NCBI GenBank assembly: GCA_963676415.1 | Contig: OY781097.1 | Location: forward strand, 4,732,555-4,796,554 | From: Bacteroidales bacterium | GTDB taxonomy: Bacteria > Bacteroidota > Bacteroidia > Bacteroidales > WRLA01 | Direction of reading: 5' to 3' | Length of the DNA: 64,000 bases | The notes under the pieces: generated by a model | The model's database searches: none | Told to the model about the DNA's origin: nothing | What the model saw: the letters and a program-made list of their open reading frames with translations, nothing else | Shown: positions 50,864 to 58,649 of the stretch, in pieces | How positions within the stretch are numbered: the first letter of the stretch is position 1 | Layout of the letters: each line of letters begins with the position of its first letter | Translations under genes and position numbers: made by a program

Positions 50864-50900
50864 CCCCGTTCCCGCGCGTGTCCTCACGCGCGGCTTAACG
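50864..50900. repeat. REP-like hairpin unit upstream of the transposase fragment
   Basis: CCGCGCGTG-TCCT-CACGCGCGG (50872-50893). A related unit lies at 56406-56442, and related inverted units lie at 51123-51148 and 57113-57159. Confidence 0.65.
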
Positions 50901-50922
50901 GATAAACCGCTATCTTTAGCCC

Positions 50923-51111
50923 ATGAGTCGCAACTATAAATTTCATAATCCAGAGGCTGTGTATTTTATTGGCTTTGCTGTTGTTGCGTGGATAGATGTT
51001 TTTACGAGGATCGAAGTTTCCCAAAATCCAGTCGAAGAAGGCCTGATGTTTTCAGTAGTGCATAGGATTATGCAGAAAGAAAGGGATACCCAAAGATGTT
51101 ATTGTGGTTGA
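50923..51111 (+). pseudogene. Fragment of an IS200-like Y1 transposase of the REP-associated (RAYT) type
   Basis: MSRNYKFHNPEAVYFIGFAVVAWIDVFTR matches the conserved N-terminus of Bacteroidetes Y1/RAYT-like transposases. The ORF then degenerates and stops at 62 aa, before the HUH and catalytic Tyr regions. Confidence 0.6.
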
Positions 51112-51154
51112 CCTTTGTGCAGTACCGCGCTTGAGGACATGCGCGGTAGCTGGG
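51065..51154. repeat. Left copy of a ~90-bp diverged direct repeat (transposase-fragment tail plus REP-like hairpin)
   Basis: Roughly 87% identical by eye to 57055-57144. Contains the hairpin TACCGCGC-N10-GCGCGGTA (51123-51148). Confidence 0.7.
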
Positions 51155-51631: not shown

Positions 51632-52204
51632 TTACAATTCATATCCAATACCTATGTAATTACTCAAATTAAATTTATCAAGCATCAAAAAAAAACCATT
51701 GTATGAACCAATTCCAGTGCCTACAAATAAATTCAATTTATTATTAATAAATTTATAATTCATTCCAATTGTTGCTGTATTTTCAACAACAAATTCTTGA
51801 CGTGTTTCCTTAAAAGGATATCCATGCTGATATTCTTCAAATTCTATTCGAAACACAGAAAAGTTAAATTGTCCGTATATTTGTAAATTATTAATTAATT
51901 CTTTTGTGTAGTATCTATAACCGAAATTAATACCAAATGCATTATTCTCATAAATTTCATTTGCAACTGGAGTAGGCTGGAAAATATATGAATATTGAGG
52001 CCCCACATAAAAATCATGACTATTTAACCTGTATGAGCAAACAAGAATATGATGTATAACCCTGAAATTATAATCACGTTTTACTTCAAAATCATAAGAA
52101 AATGTATAGCGTAAACCAAAACCTGATTTTTTTGTTTCCTGACAATATGTATCGGTAAATGAAATGAATACAATTAAAAAGACAATGATTTTTCTTATTT
52201 CCAT
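51632..52204 (-). CDS. Hypothetical secreted protein, possibly a small outer-membrane beta-barrel
   Basis: Signal peptide, then alternating aromatic/hydrophobic strand-like segments rich in Y, F, N and G. There is a 1-nt overlap with the upstream GH16 reading frame. Confidence 0.5.
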   Translation of the reverse strand: MEIRKIIVFLIVFISFTDTYCQETKKSGFGLRYTFSYDFEVKRDYNFRVIHHILVCSYRLNSHDFYVGPQYSYIFQPTPVANEIYENNAFGINFGYRYYTKELINNLQIYGQFNFSVFRIEFEEYQHGYPFKETRQEFVVENTATIGMNYKFINNKLNLFVGTGIGSYNGFFLMLDKFNLSNYIGIGYEL

Positions 52205-53595
52205 TATTTTAAAATTATTTTTTCCAAAACTGAATTATCACCAAAGAATCCTGTTAGAATATATACTCCTTTTGCAAGATTAGAAATATCTATATTTATT
52301 CTATTCTCAGTAATATTGTCCTTAATAAAGACAACAATTCCTGTTGAACTGGTTAATGTTATTTTAATTTTTCTATCAATTTTACCAACAAATTCAATAT
52401 CAATTTTTCCATCAGTAGGGTTTGGGTAAATTTTCGTATATAATAAAGGTGGATTATCTATGTTTGCTTTTGTTTGTGATTGCTGCAAACTATCTGGAAC
52501 AACTTCGGAAATAATATGCAATATGCTATCGTGGGTTTCTTGAATTTTAAGGCTTTTATTTGGGCTAGGACAATCAACAATTTTGGCACTAAAATTACTT
52601 CCTGCTTCAGCTACAAACCCAGGTTTTAATTCAATTTTATCAGTAGCAATTAATTCAAGATATTGGCCACTTTGTAAATTTGCATTTCCATTATTACCTC
52701 CCACAGTAATTTGACTGCCTGTAATAACTGTAGGGTCAGTGTTGCTTTGAGAATAATTCTCCATTGTTATATTCTGTTCACAATCAAGTCTTGTCCATAT
52801 ACGAATATAATCAATTTCAAAAATTGAAGGAAATGGGGTTGTATTATCAGGTCCAGGGGAAAATGGTCCATTATCATTTGCTATTGCTAAATTTGCAATA
52901 ACTTTTTCTTGATAATCTAAATTGCCCAACCAAATTGCAAATTCTTGACCATTTAAATACCAAAAAGCTACATTTGGCCCCCATTCACCCATCATTACAT
53001 TATAACTATCTGAAAAATTCCCTGAAGCCGTTACCCATTCACCAAAATTATCACATTCATTGCCCGGACAGTGCATATCTATGTGAATTATGTTAGGTAT
53101 TTCTCCTTTATATTCAAAGATGTCAAATTCTTCATTAGGGTTTCCACCATAAAGCCAGAAAGCAGGCCAAAGCCCTCTTCCTTCAGGTAGTTTAAAACGA
53201 ATTTCAAAAAGCCCATACTTAAATTTCTTTTTTGTTTAAATCCAACCAGATGTGTATTCAAAATATTTTTGCTCAATATGTGCTCCTCCGTCAAACCTCC
53301 AAACATCATAATACCCTGGTTCTTCTTTAGCAATCAGTTTCAATATTCCATTATCTAATACAATATTATAATCTAAGTAATACTGTAATTCATTTCCATG
53401 TTCTCTATTCCAACCATCCTCACAAGTATACCATTTAGTATTATCTAACTCTATTCCATTAAATTCGTCTCCACCTGAATATGCCCACCGAATAATTGAG
53501 CCATCCATTAATAATTGCCAAATTGTTTCTGGCTGTCCTTTTACATTGCTGATTATTGTTAGCATTGCTGTCATAATGATTATTGTTCTTTTCAT
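52204..53595 (-). pseudogene. Glycoside hydrolase family 16 protein with a T9SS type-A CTD, interrupted by one in-frame TAA
   Basis: ORFs 53236-53688 and 52204-53076 are in the same frame. Read across the TAA at 53236-53238, the sequence is ...YTSGWI*TKKKFKYGLFEIRFKLPEGRGLWPAFWLYGG..EEFDIFE..., which holds the GH16 E-x-D-x-x-E catalytic motif (EFDIFE). The N-terminal signal peptide starts at MKRTIIIMTAML, and the C-terminus reads KIYPNPTDGKIDIEF...GVYILTG. Confidence 0.75.
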
Positions 53596-53804
53596 AGTAT
53601 TTTGTTTTTTCAGCCTTACCGCTAACGGTTTGGCTATGTGGAGTGCGGGACTTTGAAACGCTTCACTGTCAGGCTGCCACTGAGCCAATTCGTTTATTCA
53701 TATTTTAGTTTTTATAGCCAAATCGTCAAAGACGAATTGGCGTTGCCGCTGCGAAGAACTGCGTTTGATTTACCCGCTGTACCCCGCATTACATATAGCT
53801 TTTG

Positions 53805-55865
53805 TTACCTGCTGGGTTTTATTTCTTTTAGTTCTTCTGGTATTTCTAGTAATTCAATAAATGCCTTGATATTTGACATGTTTCGATATTTATTAAATAA
53901 TGTCCGAATAATTATTGCAGAAAAAATCGTAGCACCCACGAATACAATAAAGCTGACTATAATGTTACCTTTTAAACTGATAAACAATTCGGTGGCAACG
54001 CTCAAATTCCAATTTGACTTGAATAACAGAATTATAAGAACTATTAAAGCGATTAGTATAGAAATTCCCAATTCAATCCAAGATTTTTTCCTCCATTTTG
54101 CGAGTTCCTTTTCAATGTATTTTTCTCTCTTAAGTTCTAGGATTTTGTTTTCTTTTTGAAAGTCTTTTGACTTAAGTTTTGTCAATTCATCTTGCAATTT
54201 GCCATTTTCAATTTTTTTCGCATCAAGGCTTGCTTTCTCCTTCTTAATATTTTCAGATTCCTTCTTTAGGTCAACAACAATTTTTTCAATCTGTGCAACA
54301 CGTTTTTCTTCAATCTTTCTCTGTTTTTCTGCTTCATCTTCTAATCGTTTTACAAATTTTCCCTTATTCTCATGGGCAAGTTTATTTAGGTTTTCAACTC
54401 TTGAAATTTGTTTGTTAGCAATTCTTGTAGCAACTCTTACAATTTGCTCGTCGCTTAACTTGTCTTTTGCATATTTCTGAATGTTATCGTCTAACTCTCT
54501 GATAATTGCATTTTTGGGCAGAGACTCATTTAAAGTGCTTGAAATTAGTGCTGGCAATCCAACATTAATAATTTCTTCGCTATTTAGATTATTGCCAATA
54601 TTGGGATTACTTAGCCATAAAATATTTAATAAAACATCAGCTTTAATTATTTCTGGTTGATATCCATTTCCAAATACTTCTTCACATTGTGAAAAGTCAT
54701 CGTACTCCGTATTAAAAGCATTGTTTACAAACCAACAGTTTACTTTTTCAAAGGCTTTGAATTTTTTGTTTCCTCTTTTCCCACGAACATAATAAATGGC
54801 AGTTGCATCGTGTAGAGCTGCTGCTTTGTTGTTCCGATATTTTTGAAGGTTTCTATACTCCTTGCTAAATTTTGCAATATTTGAATATTTCGTTGTTACA
54901 GGGACAGTTATAATTCCAAAATTGTCATTGAGGATTTTAGGGATGTTGTCTGCAATGTTTTCTAAATCTGTCTTTGTTAATCCTCTTCGGTCACAGGCGT
55001 TATATATATCCTCTGGGTTTACTTTTTTAGTTAAGAAAGATTCATGGAAATGTTCAGCACGTCTTAAAATTAACCTTTGAATTTCATCAATTGTGTCATT
55101 CAAAATTGAAATTTTATATCCATTGTGTTTGGCAATTTTTACAAGCTTTTTGCAAGTGTCAGTTGATTCAGGGGTGTTTAAATCAATGAGACTGATTATG
55201 AAATTTGTATCAAACAGGAGTTCAACCTCTAGTTCAATAGGGTTGGTTGAATACTCAATGTATGATGAAAGAATTGAACCTAGATATAACTCTTTAATTG
55301 TATTATAAACTTGGGGTATTTGTTTAAAAAAACTAACAAATTGCGCCTCAATTGTGTAATCTTCTTTTTTGTCAGATTTGTGTTTTTCTGCCAAGTATTT
55401 GGAGATTGTTGTTTTGTTGATTTCTAAAAAGTTGAATATTGAAGTATATTCCTTTTTATCAATATTGTTTAGACCGCAAAATTCTTGAAATAATCGCTCG
55501 ATGTTTTCAATCAGCACCTTTTTTTCATCAATCAGGGATTCAAATTCATTAAAAACATAATTATTTATAGAAAATGCTCCGTCTTTGTAGATTGTGAATT
55601 TTACTTCATTGTCAGTGTTTACTTCATTAGCAATTTGATGAAGGATATTTATTAAGACTGGAATTGGTATGTCTATGGAATAGAAATCCAGAATTACCCT
55701 TTTTATCTCCGAAATATTCTTTCCACTATAAATCCCTTCAGAGTTCATTTCTGCCAAGGCACTTTTTGCCAAAGGGACGAAAATGTCAATAAGTCCTTTT
55801 GTCAATGTCCCTGTGTTATTTATGTGGGCAAGTAAACTGTATGTAACTAATCTCGTTTTATTCAT
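53805..55865 (-). CDS. Hypothetical 686-aa protein: N-terminal domain of unknown function, predicted PIN-like nuclease core, long coiled coil, two C-terminal TM helices
   Basis: Residues ~213-385 carry hydrophobic-strand-plus-Asp motifs (ELLFDTNFIISL with D219, TIDEI with E261, ALHDATAIYYV with D353). Residues ~490-595 are K/E-rich with heptad character. Residues ~596-616 and ~634-655 are strongly hydrophobic. The gene is very AT-rich. Confidence 0.6.
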   Translation of the reverse strand: MNKTRLVTYSLLAHINNTGTLTKGLIDIFVPLAKSALAEMNSEGIYSGKNISEIKRVILDFYSIDIPIPVLINILHQIANEVNTDNEVKFTIYKDGAFSINNYVFNEFESLIDEKKVLIENIERLFQEFCGLNNIDKKEYTSIFNFLEINKTTISKYLAEKHKSDKKEDYTIEAQFVSFFKQIPQVYNTIKELYLGSILSSYIEYSTNPIELEVELLFDTNFIISLIDLNTPESTDTCKKLVKIAKHNGYKISILNDTIDEIQRLILRRAEHFHESFLTKKVNPEDIYNACDRRGLTKTDLENIADNIPKILNDNFGIITVPVTTKYSNIAKFSKEYRNLQKYRNNKAAALHDATAIYYVRGKRGNKKFKAFEKVNCWFVNNAFNTEYDDFSQCEEVFGNGYQPEIIKADVLLNILWLSNPNIGNNLNSEEIINVGLPALISSTLNESLPKNAIIRELDDNIQKYAKDKLSDEQIVRVATRIANKQISRVENLNKLAHENKGKFVKRLEDEAEKQRKIEEKRVAQIEKIVVDLKKESENIKKEKASLDAKKIENGKLQDELTKLKSKDFQKENKILELKREKYIEKELAKWRKKSWIELGISILIALIVLIILLFKSNWNLSVATELFISLKGNIIVSFIVFVGATIFSAIIIRTLFNKYRNMSNIKAFIELLEIPEELKEIKPSR

Positions 55866-56405
55866 GGTGTTTGTTTTTTTAACCTTGCAGGTAACTCCCG
55901 CATATAAGAACCCCCAATTACCATTACATCGCCTTTGTCCGCAGCTGGTATTTGCCTATCAGGCTTTATTTCAACAAAATTAGTATGGGCGCATGCCGGT
56001 TTCATATGCTTTTTCTTTGTTTCTCAACAAATTTAGATAATATTGTCTAATTTCCAAGGATGATTTCTGCAAATCTTTCATTTTTTCCACGCAAAATATT
56101 TTGCTTTGACACATTAATAAGCTGCACTTTTGGCTTCTTCCCTGCCCGAACCGAAACGAAATGAAATGAAGCCTAAACCATGCTGCTTGTGAAACGAACA
56201 TATTTCATAAAAATGCCACGATCCTGTTGTGCTTAGCCCATGTGCATTATAAAATGTTCGTAAGCTAAAAAACCTTAACCTAAATTTATCCAAAATCGCT
56301 TTCGTAGCCGTTTTAATAAACGGTTATAACCGGATATAAGCGTTTATTAAAACGGATAAGCCCGCCTGTTTTTGGCAAAAATGCCGGATTCCGGCTAAGC
56401 AAACC

Positions 56406-56442
56406 CCGTTCCCGCTCGTGTCCTCACGCGTGGCTTAGCAAG
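56406..56442. repeat. 37-nt REP-like unit flanked by a 16-bp direct repeat
   Basis: CCGTTCCCGCTCGTGTCCTCACGCGTGGCTTAGCAAG lies between two copies of TCCGGCTAAGCAAACC (56390-56405 and 56443-56458). Confidence 0.7.
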
Positions 56443-57054
56443 TCCGGCTAAGCAAACCAATACCTTCCGCAAGGCACAAAAGCAGCTTTCTTTCAACAGC
56501 TCTTGTTGCCTTGATATTTTCATGCGCATCAAAAATTATTTCTACGACTATGATCATCAATCTAAATACTTGAAGTAAATCCAACAAGACCTTAGCAATT
56601 ATTAAAAGCATGCGGGATTACGGCAATTTTGTAAGGCAAATTTTTACCGATTTTTTCGGTAATTTCCCGCAAAACCCTGATTATCCCTACAGGGGTTTTC
56701 CTGCTACCATCGCTATACCATCGCGCTACCAAGACGCTGCAAATACTTTGCGGGCAGCCGGCTGCTGCGGGCTTGCTTCGGGCAGATATTCTGTAAATAT
56801 ACTAATTAGAGTTTGTCCACAGAGTCGAGAGTTTGCTCTATAAAGTTCAAATTCAAGGCGTGTGAAAAATCCAAACCGGATAATACTCAAGTATTTGAGG
56901 ATTTGGATTTTGAGCAACAACGCAGAAGTTGGACTTTATAGACGAACTCCAATTAAGGCAAATTAGACCTACTCATCGGATGACTGGGAGTCATCCGATG
57001 AGTAGCGTTATCCGATGGGTGCTATGAATCATATGAGGTATCACGGAATATCAG

Positions 57055-57159
57055 GGATTATGCAGAAAAAAAGCGATACACGAAGATGTTATTGTGGTTG
57101 ATATTTAAGCAGTACCACGCGTGAGGACACGCGCGGTAGCTGGGACACGCGCGGTAGCT
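57055..57159. repeat. Right copy of the ~90-bp diverged repeat plus a duplicated REP half-site
   Basis: 57055-57144 matches 51065-51154. GGACACGCGCGGTAGCT occurs twice in tandem (57124-57140 and 57143-57159). Confidence 0.7.
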
Positions 57160-57220: not shown

Positions 57221-57430
57221 TCACTCTTCCATGAACCAATGGATATAGCCGCACTGCTCACATATATAATTGGTGGCTTTTTTATTGGCCCAATCAATAT
57301 TCAGGAAACTGAAAGCCACCGTATTCATCAAAGTTTTGCGGGTATAAAAACGTTTATGGCCACATATTTGGCAGGTCAGCCTGATGTTGCGGCCAACAAT
57401 AAATTCCTTAGATGTTTTGTCTTTACTCAT
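57221..57430 (-). CDS. Small zinc-ribbon protein
   Basis: Two CxxC pairs (CQICGH, CEQCGY). It is probably translationally coupled to the upstream HTH gene. Start placed at MSKDK. Confidence 0.5.
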   Translation of the reverse strand: MSKDKTSKEFIVGRNIRLTCQICGHKRFYTRKTLMNTVAFSFLNIDWANKKATNYICEQCGYIHWFMEE

Positions 57431-57647
57431 TTTGAAAGTCATTTTGAGGTTCATATTCCAGGATATCGCCGGGCTGGCATTCCAATACTTCGCAAATAGC
57501 TTCCAGCGTGCTGAAGCGCACGGCTTTGGCTTTTCCTTTTTTTAGGATGCTGAGATTGGCCATAGTGATCCCAATGCGACCGCTCAATTCGGTGAGGCTC
57601 ATCTTTCGTTTGGCCAGCATCACGTCAAGGTTAACTATTATACCCAT
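57423..57647 (-). CDS. YozG-like Cro/C1-type HTH transcriptional regulator
   Basis: IIVNLDVMLAKRKMSLTELSGRIGITMANLSILKKGKAKAVRFSTLEAICEVLECQPGDILEY is a near-canonical member of this small regulator family. Confidence 0.85.
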   Translation of the reverse strand: MGIIVNLDVMLAKRKMSLTELSGRIGITMANLSILKKGKAKAVRFSTLEAICEVLECQPGDILEYEPQNDFQNE

Positions 57648-57649
57648 AA

Positions 57650-58279
57650 TTAAATAGTTAAATCGTTATTTTCCTGTAATTCGACGCCTTTTACAAATAC
57701 ATGCGAGAGCACCCAAATAAAAAGGGCTGCAAGCAAAACAGCAGGATAGAACTGCAAATCTGCGGCACTGTCGAGTACCGGATAATCGAGGCGCTGCACA
57801 ATGTAGAAATACTGAAAATAAGCATAAAACAGCATAAACAACCAGCCAAGAGCAACAGCATAGGCAATCCTTTTAAGAAGGCCGATATTTCTTTTATTGA
57901 AATAATCGCCTTTATAAATTGTGCCGATGAAGTTTTTAAAGGTGTAAAAGACGTAGAAAAACAATGCAATGGCCAGCAGCATAAAAACACCGTATATGCG
58001 CCCTATAAACTGAGGTGTTCCATCGCTAAAGCGCATCCTGCCCTGCATCTCAACAAAACGCACTGCAATATCGTGACCATCAATTTGAAGCAGGCCGTTT
58101 TGTGCCAGATCCAAACCAACAGGAACACCTACAGCGAGATTATCCGGTCGGATGAAGCCATAAATAAAGCCTACAGACAGATAAACGCCCACAAGCAAAG
58201 AGGCACAAAAGAGCCAAAAAGTAATTTGAGTGCCCCAATAAATTAATTTGATACTCAAGGATTGATTTTGTGTTTCCAT
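57650..58279 (-). CDS. DUF2975-like membrane protein
   Basis: Four TM helices and the conserved genomic pairing with the YozG-like HTH. Start placed at METQNQ. Confidence 0.6.
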   Translation of the reverse strand: METQNQSLSIKLIYWGTQITFWLFCASLLVGVYLSVGFIYGFIRPDNLAVGVPVGLDLAQNGLLQIDGHDIAVRFVEMQGRMRFSDGTPQFIGRIYGVFMLLAIALFFYVFYTFKNFIGTIYKGDYFNKRNIGLLKRIAYAVALGWLFMLFYAYFQYFYIVQRLDYPVLDSAADLQFYPAVLLAALFIWVLSHVFVKGVELQENNDLTI

Positions 58280-58437
58280 AGCAATTGATTTTTGATGCAG
58301 CAAAGATAGGCAAGAATTATTAAAAAGCAAGAAAAATTTATTGTTAAACAATAATTTTATTTTGAATAACAATAATTACTCCTTATATTAGAGGTTCTAC
58401 ACTGTATTTCGTGGAAAGAAACTTGAATGCTATTCCA

Positions 58438-58649
58438 AACAGATTCCTCCAAAGTTTCCTCATACTTCGGAAAACTTTGTCGGAATGACGCGTTTTTATG
58501 AAGTCAGGAGGCAAATGCGGCGAGGACACAGTAGTATATTTTAAATACGTCCTCGCCGCATTTGCCTTAAACACCTAATAAACAGCGTCATTCCGACCGG
58601 AACAAAGCTAAACGAAATGATTAAAGCTTTGTGTAGGGAGGAATCTGTT
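58438..58649. repeat. 212-bp nested-palindrome element
   Basis: Three concentric perfect inverted repeats: AACAGATTCCTCC (58438-58450 with 58637-58649), GTCGGAATGACGC (58479-58491 with 58585-58597), and GGCAAATGCGGCGAGGAC (58510-58527 with 58549-58566). Confidence 0.8.

Follow-up and report, generated by a model that had tools for sequence, protein, structure and literature searches.

What a stand-alone gene of foreign composition does in a Bacteroidales genome is the question raised by the locus studied here. The gene lies on the minus strand at positions 53805-55865 of a stretch of 64,000 nucleotides (nt) from contig OY781097.1 (assembly GCA_963676415.1); this whole 64-kb stretch is referred to as the window, the encoded protein as the window protein and the clade of its closer relatives as the window's clade. 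The original prediction, made from the letters of the DNA, had described an orphan protein that combines a PIN-like nuclease core, a coiled coil of about 100 residues and a C-terminal membrane anchor of two helices, and had put it forward as a candidate stand-alone defence gene. Its position for the open reading frame (ORF), the motifs that it quoted (LLFD219TN, TIDE261I and LHD353ATAIYYV) and its residue numbers proved correct. As judged by sequence comparison, the protein is a member of a large, deep and uncharacterised family, some distant members of which end in a hairpin homologous to the pore of the mitochondrial calcium uniporter (MCU). We propose, with about an even chance of being right, that it is a stand-alone, membrane-embedded PIN nuclease that serves in defence or conflict against phages or conjugative elements. 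The features of the gene, all on the minus strand, are as follows, with the basis of each given in brackets.

53805-55865, minus strand: complete ORF of 686 amino acids plus stop codon, with an ATG start (ORF listing)
55251-55865, minus strand: N-terminal domain, residues 1-205, with a winged-helix-like topology followed by a helical bundle (AlphaFold)
54606-55250, minus strand: PIN-like nuclease domain, residues ~206-420 (AlphaFold and Foldseek; Pfam matches of homologues)
55209-55211, minus strand: codon of D219, predicted metal-binding residue in LLFDTN, where strand 1 ends (unchanged among 52 homologues, with identities as low as 25%)
55083-55085, minus strand: codon of E261, predicted catalytic residue, in T258-x-x-E261 at the start of a helix (E261 at least 90% conserved, T258 invariant)
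54807-54809, minus strand: codon of D353 (LHDATAI), predicted catalytic residue (D353 invariant, H352 at least 90% conserved)
54720-54725, minus strand: codons of N381-N382 in WFVNN, where the fourth PIN acid would stand (invariant in the window's clade)
54366-54605, minus strand: conserved helical segment, residues 421-500, with LPK..IxRELDDNIxKYA and RVATRIxNKQ (lowest nonsynonymous divergence)
54081-54365, minus strand: coiled coil, residues ~501-595, the positional equivalent of coiled-coil 1 of MCU (helix prediction and heptad-stepped lengths)
53901-54080, minus strand: predicted membrane hairpin, consisting of transmembrane helix 1 (TM1, ~596-616), a periplasmic loop (617-633) with W619-N620, and TM2 (~634-655) (hydropathy and hhalign)
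53808-53900, minus strand: predicted cytoplasmic tail, residues 656-686, with the motif K659-Y660-R-N662-x-S-N665-I (conservation)

The label 'orphan' did not survive a search of larger collections. At least 980 homologous clusters (90% identity) were found for the window protein at E <= 1e-3 in a large protein database, and the best 120 of these, nearly all 663-711 amino acids long, matched it over its entire length with 47-83% identity. HMMER, run exhaustively over 1.84 billion cluster representatives, gave 539 clusters at 50% identity, 181 of them below 1e-30; most matches keep the full-length architecture, which was retained down to 26-30% identity. Compared with its two closest orthologues, the gene shows a nonsynonymous divergence (dN) of 0.08-0.10, a saturated synonymous divergence (dS) and a dN/dS ratio of about 0.02-0.03, indicating a real gene under strong purifying selection; a spurious ORF or a pseudogene is ruled out by this conservation.

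Relatives are encoded in 91 of 185,579 species (one genome per species). The carriers are mostly Bacteroidota of the orders Flavobacteriales, Cytophagales, Chitinophagales and Bacteroidales, the last including gut Prevotella, Alistipes, Odoribacter and Parabacteroides, with a few Campylobacterota (Sulfurimonas, Arcobacter) and one Melioribacteraceae genome. The window protein is 100% identical to database cluster P0001, and its nearest relatives come from a Mariniphaga metagenome-assembled genome (MAG; 86%) and from Sunxiuqinia indica (83%), which points to a Prolixibacteraceae-like genome as the probable source of the window. Three close homologues, L017 (81%), L042 (49%) and L087 (44%), lie on short MAG contigs assigned to Candidatus Paceibacterota, Methanobacteriaceae archaeon and Holosporaceae; these labels most likely reflect Bacteroidota contigs that contaminated the bins, and not the true hosts. 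Homologues are mostly annotated as 'hypothetical protein' in their sources, apart from one UniRef entry named 'PIN like domain-containing protein' and one JGI entry named 'predicted nucleic acid-binding protein'. The window protein gave no match or only noise against Pfam (E <= 1), NCBIfam, PADLOC-DB v2.0.0 (E <= 1), PHROGs and the PDB sequences, and the earlier statement that no described defence system fits it agrees with the empty PADLOC result. One relative of 924 amino acids (P0171) carries an extra domain of about 250 residues after the membrane hairpin, with an LVEGKSDE motif and sub-threshold Pfam matches to Toprim_2 and to an OLD-like TOPRIM (E 0.003-0.005); Toprim nucleases of the OLD type are frequent components of defence systems.

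The central domain had been read as a PIN-like nuclease from its acidic motifs, and structural comparison supports this reading. AlphaFold models were obtained for the full-length protein (35 sequences; predicted local distance difference test, pLDDT, 68.6) and for residues 1-420 (52 diverse sequences; pLDDT 82.1, predicted template-modelling score 0.77). The top Foldseek matches of both models in the PDB were almost entirely proteins of the PIN superfamily, namely VapC (7vwo), VapC20 (5wzf), VapC11 (6a7v), VapC30 (4xgr), PAE0151 (2fe1), VapBC2 (3zvk) and FitB (2bsq), as well as PAE2754, AF1683 and Nmd4, with probabilities of 0.96-1.00 and target-normalised TM-scores of 0.50-0.69; FEN1/Exo1 and protein-only RNase P came lower in the list. 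Within a viral-structure library the best match, with E 1.5e-3 and a probability of 1.00, was to a phage protein that carries the name 'PIN like domain'. When 38 diverse homologues were scanned singly against Pfam, weak matches were obtained to PIN_3 (10/38), PIN (4/38) and PIN_12 (2/38). In the AlphaFold model, a helical insertion of about 75 residues (272-346) lies within the PIN core.

The three acidic residues proposed to form the active site are conserved throughout the family: in alignments of 38-52 homologues reaching down to 23% identity, D219 and D353 never change and E261 shows at least 90% conservation, and T220, T258 and H352 are likewise invariant or at least 90% conserved in alignments down to 23-25% identity. 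In the predicted structure D219 stands at the end of strand 215-218, T258-x-x-E261 starts helix 256-271, and D353 lies near the start of helix 347-363, positions which fit a PIN active site as modelled. PIN domains usually carry T-x-D after the strand that corresponds to 377-381 of the window protein; the MCU-like clade described below keeps a canonical T-D there (WFVTD). Taken at the level of fold and active site, and as far as the models go, the PIN assignment is well supported, with one catalytic position substituted.

The domain in front of the nuclease core is less readily placed. In the model of residues 1-420, residues 1-205 comprise the elements H25-42, E46-47, H52-62, H68-82, E90-92 and E98-100, and from this order of secondary-structure elements we infer that the domain may start as a winged helix-turn-helix. 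Foldseek on the AlphaFold model, the means suggested earlier for identifying this domain, returned nothing for residues 1-205, and neither did Pfam or the PDB sequences; Y9, P67 and G196 are invariant family-wide. Behind the nuclease core, residues 421-500 have the lowest dN of any segment (0.035-0.038), and E457, L458, D459, D460, N461, I462, K464 and Y465 in RELDDNIxKYA are invariant in the window's clade. This segment was also the one modelled with the least confidence (pLDDT 30-45), and it may fold only in an oligomer or on a partner.

The predicted coiled coil was borne out by several features. Residues ~500-595 consist of K, E, R or D to 52%, AlphaFold predicts one continuous helix (H501-616), and hydrophobic residues recur in register in a heptad layout with a periodicity peak at 3.5 residues (p = 0.07 in a shuffling test). 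Stronger evidence lies in the spacer between the invariant residues F504 and W591, which in 33 of 35 homologues varies in steps of seven residues (series 77/84/91/98 and 87/94/101), since a coiled coil imposes length changes in heptad units. The two C-terminal membrane helices that had been called from hydrophobicity are also evident, with Kyte-Doolittle means of 3.07 for ~597-615 and 2.81 for ~634-654, and hydropathy revealed no further candidate membrane segment in the window protein. Exactly two C-terminal hydrophobic segments, and none elsewhere, were present in 29 of 38 diverse members at a stringent threshold, and most of the remaining nine had one segment above it. Because positively charged stretches flank the pair, with WRKKS preceding TM1 and R..NKYRN following TM2, both termini are predicted to be cytoplasmic and the 17-residue loop periplasmic. 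While the coiled coil drifts, W591, R592, W596, W619, K659, Y660, N662 and N665 do not change over the range of 48-83% identity, indicating that the hairpin is not a loose anchor; K659, Y660, N662, N665 and P676 are invariant in 35 homologues.

Distant relatives reveal what this hairpin is related to. The Pfam MCU family (PF04678) matched 9 of the 38 diverse homologues scanned singly, with a best E-value of 1.4e-18, and three full-length relatives exceeded the curated threshold of 30.8 bits (P0164, 68; P0166, 55.7; P0195, 32.6). In these three the match runs over model positions 26-177 of 177, that is, coiled coil, TM1, loop, TM2 and the following helix, and the matches in relatives begin within the coiled-coil segment. 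HMMER aligned these three as one stretch to residues 1 to about 650 of the window protein (E 1e-105 to 1e-108). Loops of the MCU-like clade read GWNVMEPWTYF, GWNIMEPVVYF and GWDSIEPKAYW, and the Trp and Glu of W-x-x-x-E-P are invariant in eight MCU-like members. A C-terminal profile of this clade, searched against the PDB (E <= 0.01), retrieved 13 distinct sequences, 13 of 13 being fungal, human or nematode MCU, with E-values of 5.7e-12 to 3e-9; since every match is MCU, the similarity indicates a specific homology and not an effect of composition. In these alignments gWnvmEPvvYfiglvp is set against GWDTMEPVTYLVSLST, and GWNVMEPvvYf against GWDTMEPVTYL of MCU. Searches of a large database with the MCU-like C-terminus gave one fragment with a single sequence and nothing with a profile.

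The window's clade is connected to this module through its relatives. Comparison by hhalign of the C-terminus of the window's clade with that of the MCU-like clade gave a probability of 91.3% (E 9.5e-7), aligned W619 with the filter Trp and placed a 12-residue loop insertion in the window's clade. Position +1 after the loop Trp is Asn or Asp throughout this clade (N620 in the window protein), only a 31-residue tail follows TM2 in the window protein, and other clades carry quite different hairpin sequences. In MCU structures the filter Glu forms the high-affinity calcium site. On the grounds of the hhalign score, the placement of W619 on the filter Trp and the occupation of the Glu-Pro positions by V623-A624 (+4 and +5), the window hairpin is, as judged by alignment, a diverged descendant of an MCU-type module without the calcium-site Glu. 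The earlier description as a membrane anchor thus stands as regards the two helices, but the hairpin appears to be more than an anchor in view of its MCU-type counterpart in relatives and of the invariant juxtamembrane motifs. Bick, Calvo and Mootha (Science 2012) reportedly drew attention to bacterial MCU homologues as candidate calcium channels of prokaryotes. Across the family, W-x-x-x-E-P loops co-vary with WFVTD, and the loop type of the window protein, together with its KYRNxSN tail, co-varies with WFVNN; this co-variation suggests that the nuclease site and the membrane module evolve together.

To describe the genomic setting of the family, four genes on each side were clustered at the 55 loci where the focal gene could be recognised. 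No partner gene is conserved: the largest neighbour family, an HsdM-like methylase, occurred at 8 of the 55 loci, followed by an HsdR-like helicase-nuclease (7), a tyrosine integrase (5), a restriction-type helicase (4) and HsdS (3), all at varying positions, and the median gap to the upstream gene was 170 nt. A toxin-antitoxin pair of the VapBC type was rejected in view of the length of 686 amino acids and of this lack of a conserved partner. Pfam and PADLOC scans of the 150 genes within two positions of the focal gene at 38 loci gave N6_Mtase, HSDR_N, ResIII, SWI2_SNF2, Methylase_S, AAA_21 and DUF4357 as the commonest Pfam families, and type I and IIG restriction-modification (R-M) components, mad2 and PDC-S14 as the commonest PADLOC models; housekeeping neighbours such as RF-1 and Redoxin were also present. 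Since type I R-M genes account for only a small part of a genome, roughly a dozen R-M genes among 150 neighbours looks like a clear enrichment, as judged against general expectation and not against a control set. The settings of individual homologues are as follows.

Flavobacterium psychrophilum: gene between HsdR plus two GmrSD genes and a Schlafen/AlbA_2 ATPase gene
Thalassobellus: gene in a conjugative element with TraG coupling protein, relaxase-like DUF5712, SSB, integrase and an IS3 element
Carboxylicivirga: gene between HipA and ArdC, with an integrase adjoining
Bacteroidales MAG: gene followed by a helix-turn-helix (HTH) gene, a type I/IIG methylase, HsdS and an AAA_15/21 ATPase
Polaribacter: gene after a RelE-like gene, in a tract bounded by an integrase
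One further homologue: gene amid insertion sequence (IS) elements
Chitinophagaceae: gene between ordinary genes
MCU-like clade: gene beside ThiF and topoisomerase III with Toprim_Crpt

Genes of type I R-M systems, integrases, conjugative elements and toxin-antitoxin systems are thus frequent neighbours, in keeping with the earlier placement of the gene in variable or mobile regions. A housekeeping context, which had been named as a sign of a different role, applies to some homologue loci, while R-M, integrase and conjugative-element neighbours are common at others. Similarity at the DNA level to the closest loci extends beyond the coding region by about 30 nt on the upstream side and by 100-180 nt on the downstream side, and because it ends just outside the gene, which is all that these loci have in common, the gene travels on its own. 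It moves horizontally among Bacteroidota. A phage or plasmid gene was rejected as its identity after tblastn against sequenced plasmid and phage collections gave no match.

Our proposal builds on the observed order of domains and their conservation, on the homology to PIN nucleases and to MCU, and on the stand-alone, mobile character of the gene. The window protein would be an inner-membrane protein with both the N- and the C-terminus facing the cytoplasm, in which the N-terminal domain probably binds nucleic acid and the core would act as a PIN-type, metal-dependent nuclease with three of the four canonical acids. The coiled coil and the hairpin most likely build an oligomer, which is probably tetrameric like MCU; since PIN toxins act as dimers, the tetramer could attractively be arranged as a dimer of dimers. 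Such an oligomer would keep the nuclease at the membrane, the site of foreign DNA entry, and away from the bulk of host nucleic acid. A cue from an invader, sensed by the N-terminal or central segments, would then release the nuclease on RNA or DNA of the invader or the host. Where a clade retains an intact W-x-x-x-E-P, the hairpin may double as a cation pore whose opening depolarises the cell, whereas in the window's clade, which has lost the filter Glu-Pro, it is more likely to serve assembly, anchoring or regulation. The role of the protein would be defence against, or an abortive response to, phages or conjugative elements. From the genomic context we infer that such a role is plausible, and it is a reasonable one given the precedents of SNIPE and of a CorA-family effector of CRISPR (clustered regularly interspaced short palindromic repeats) systems.

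Several known systems can be set beside the window protein. With VapC-type PIN nucleases (VapC20, VapC11 and VapC30 of Mycobacterium tuberculosis, PAE0151 of Pyrobaculum and FitB of Neisseria) it shares the fold by Foldseek and the placement of the first three acids (an Asp ending strand 1, T-x-x-E at a helix start, and h-h-D-A-x-x-h). It differs from them in being five times longer and membrane-embedded, in the ~75-residue insertion in its core, in the Asn at the position of the fourth acid, in its extra N-terminal and central domains, in having no adjoining antitoxin gene and in giving no Pfam PIN match itself. With MCU (PF04678; 6d7w, 6dnf, 6wdn, 6k7x, 6o58) it shares the succession of coiled coil, TM1, short outward loop led by Trp, and TM2, as well as the location, predicted for the window protein, of both ends on the matrix or cytoplasmic side; distant full-length relatives carry W-[NDS]-x-x-E-P, and the window hairpin is their positional homologue. 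Unlike MCU, the window protein has no filter Glu-Pro, its loop is 12 residues longer and a short tail replaces coiled-coil 2, whereas MCU itself has a different N-terminal domain and no nuclease.

SNIPE is a membrane-bound, single-gene anti-phage nuclease with a DNA-binding middle part, in which anchoring prevents self-cleavage and the nuclease cuts phage DNA during injection (bioRxiv 10.1101/2025.11.03.685801). It resembles the window protein in being a single polypeptide with a membrane anchor and a cytoplasmic nuclease, and may serve as a model of action. SNIPE differs in having one N-terminal membrane helix, a DUF4041 domain and a GIY-YIG nuclease, where the window protein has a C-terminal hairpin, a coiled coil and a PIN domain of unrelated sequence and fold; the window protein gave no Pfam match to DUF4041 or GIY-YIG and no PADLOC overlap with SNIPE. 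A CorA-family membrane effector of type III CRISPR in Bacteroides is activated by SAM-AMP made by Cas10 (PMC10600005), and it thereby offers a precedent for a member of a divalent-cation-channel family acting as an anti-invader effector in Bacteroidota. That effector belongs to another channel family, its gene is part of a CRISPR locus and it carries no nuclease fusion (PMC10600005). No CRISPR genes were found near homologues in the loci examined.

A number of observations weigh against a membrane-embedded PIN nuclease with a role in defence. The Foldseek matches to PIN proteins in the PDB had E-values of 0.03-0.3, none below 1e-3, modest values that we attribute to the insertions in the core, and the fourth PIN acid is replaced by Asn in the window's clade (WFVNN, after strand 377-381). 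As for the membrane module, the window protein gave no Pfam MCU match (E <= 1), the C-terminal profile of its clade retrieved only coiled-coil noise from the PDB and not MCU, and the filter Glu-Pro is lost. PADLOC-DB v2.0.0 holds no model for the protein, the enrichment of R-M neighbours is measured against expectation instead of controls, and several homologue loci are flanked by ordinary housekeeping genes. The tblastn search found no homologue in the sequenced plasmid or phage collections, and a search of sequencing runs detected the sequence only in genomic runs of the same organism.

These points bear differently on the competing explanations. With respect to the hairpin, it is quite possible, if a little short of an even chance, that in the window's clade it is an anchor and oligomerisation device only and that the link to MCU is historical, an explanation that competes with the pore part of our proposal and leaves defence untouched. 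The absent Glu-Pro and the 12-residue loop insertion agree with this, as do the quite different hairpin sequences of other clades and the lack of a Pfam or PDB match to MCU for the window's clade taken by itself, and SNIPE shows that anchoring alone can provide discrimination between self and non-self (bioRxiv 10.1101/2025.11.03.685801). On the other hand, eight juxtamembrane and loop residues are invariant while the coiled coil drifts, which goes beyond the needs of a passive anchor. The converse, a nuclease fused to an MCU-type pore in which the invader-sensing PIN and sensor domains gate a tetrameric cation channel, or the pore gates the nuclease, appears unlikely to us. A bacterial cation channel for ion homeostasis or signalling, a prokaryotic relative of MCU whose PIN-like and N-terminal domains would regulate it or bind ligands instead of forming an active nuclease, is similarly doubtful. 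The strong MCU homology of relatives with their invariant filter Trp and Glu, the invariant juxtamembrane motifs, the loss of the fourth PIN acid in the window's clade and the presence of bacterial sequences in the MCU tree (PMC7423614) would suit a channel. D219, E261 and D353 are, however, invariant or nearly so family-wide, as expected of an active enzyme; Glu-Pro is absent from the filter in the window's clade; and a sporadic distribution (91 of 185,579 species), a low content of guanine plus cytosine (GC) and a variable context would be unusual for a homeostatic channel.

The mobility of the gene could also mean that it is cargo serving a mobile element in entry exclusion, addiction or the killing of competitors, with the nuclease striking rival elements or, in cells that lose the element, their DNA or RNA. 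We consider this improbable. Some loci do lie in or near conjugative elements (TraG, DUF5712, SSB and integrase in one; ArdC and integrase in another; topoisomerase III, Toprim_Crpt and ThiF in a third), integrases occur at 5 of the 55 loci, and the PIN fold is typical of the toxins of toxin-antitoxin systems, but there is no conserved antitoxin-like partner gene, the gene moves alone and not with an element, none was found on plasmids or phages in the collections searched, and many loci have no mobile-element marker within four genes. A housekeeping ribonuclease for RNA turnover, associated with the membrane in a manner analogous to RNase Y, deserves hardly any credence: RNase Y is well known to have the same layout of membrane tether, coiled coil and nuclease, but the sporadic distribution, the absence of conserved synteny, the foreign composition and the transfer of the gene alone all speak against such a role. 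A PIN nuclease held at the membrane for defence or conflict remains the explanation that we prefer.

The surroundings of the gene in the window were also examined. The gene is more AT-rich than its surroundings, as originally stated (31.1% GC compared with 42.4% across the whole 64-kb window), and is contained in a low-GC tract of about 51.5-56.0 kb. This tract and its borders show the following features.

50864-51154, plus strand: left border with a GC-rich palindrome CCGCGCGTGTCCTCACGCGCGG, a Y1-transposase remnant ORF (50923-51111) and a copy of a 90-nt repeat (repeats D1 and D3)
51632-52204, minus strand: ORF of 190 amino acids
52204-53076, minus strand: ORF of 290 amino acids ending in a type IX secretion sorting domain
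53088-53333, minus strand: ORF of 81 amino acids
53236-53688, minus strand: ORF of 150 amino acids with a signal-peptide-like start
56404-57159, plus strand: right border, where the 34-nt and 90-nt repeats each recur, with a 17-nt unit in tandem (repeats D1, D2 and D3, inverted repeats I2 and I3)

Two pairs of direct repeats, one of 34 nt (94%; 50864-50897 with 56404-56437) and one of 90 nt (88%; 51065-51154 with 57055-57144), bracket the low-GC tract and contain GC-rich palindromes, and no additional copies were found within the window. The first 29 residues of the 62-amino-acid ORF at 50923-51111 are 72% identical to the N-terminus of a 185-amino-acid protein that passes Pfam Y1_Tnp, so that this ORF is, by sequence, the truncated start of a Y1 (IS200/RAYT-like) transposase. 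With palindromic repeat pairs and a Y1_Tnp-like start flanking the tract, the description of the borders as debris of transposase and repetitive extragenic palindromes (REP) is appropriate. The accompanying statement that the gene sits alone in an island holds for the low-GC tract but not for the solitude, since other ORFs lie on the same strand at 51632-53688; these downstream ORFs are never conserved beside homologues. The ORFs of 150, 81 and 290 amino acids look like pieces of one disrupted secreted protein, and a suspected resemblance of 53236-53688 to family-16 glycoside hydrolases was dropped for want of Pfam support. Rfam and tRNA scans of the window found nothing, indicating that there is no tRNA integration site.

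Upstream of the gene, TAATTTTG at 55975-55982 (minus strand), about 110 nt before the start codon, fits TAnnTTTG, which we take to be the Bacteroidota -7 element, and a sigma-70 scan gave no more sites than shuffled sequence. Beyond the right border, three small genes stand in a row at 57221-58372 (minus strand); they code for a Zn-ribbon protein (Zn_ribbon_13, slightly under threshold), a regulator of the HTH_26 type and a membrane protein with DUF2975, and probably have no connection with the gene studied here. I13 (58509-58567), a perfect inverted repeat of 19 bp around a 21-nt spacer, is intergenic and lies upstream of the DUF2975 gene.

No paper was found that links MCU or the calcium uniporter with PIN, anti-phage, prokaryotic or conflict systems, in a full-text search that left most subscription journals outside, and large surveys of bacterial conflict systems make no mention of MCU; it thus appears to be new that bacterial MCU-like modules terminate a large family of PIN nucleases in mobile and R-M-rich regions. 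If the gene serves in defence, it would represent a widespread single-gene system of Bacteroidota that current detection tools have missed, carried among others by the fish pathogen Flavobacterium psychrophilum and by gut Prevotella, Alistipes, Odoribacter and Parabacteroides, and it would add a second, unrelated case of a nuclease tethered to the membrane. If nuclease and pore were coupled, the pore module of the uniporter in mitochondria and a bacterial conflict effector would have a common origin, and the window protein would be a derived member with an altered or lost calcium filter. Whatever its role, the family joins a bacterial PIN nuclease with a genuine pore module of the MCU type, and it offers a concrete set of prokaryotic proteins for studying the origin of the uniporter pore and the function of MCU-like hairpins outside mitochondria.

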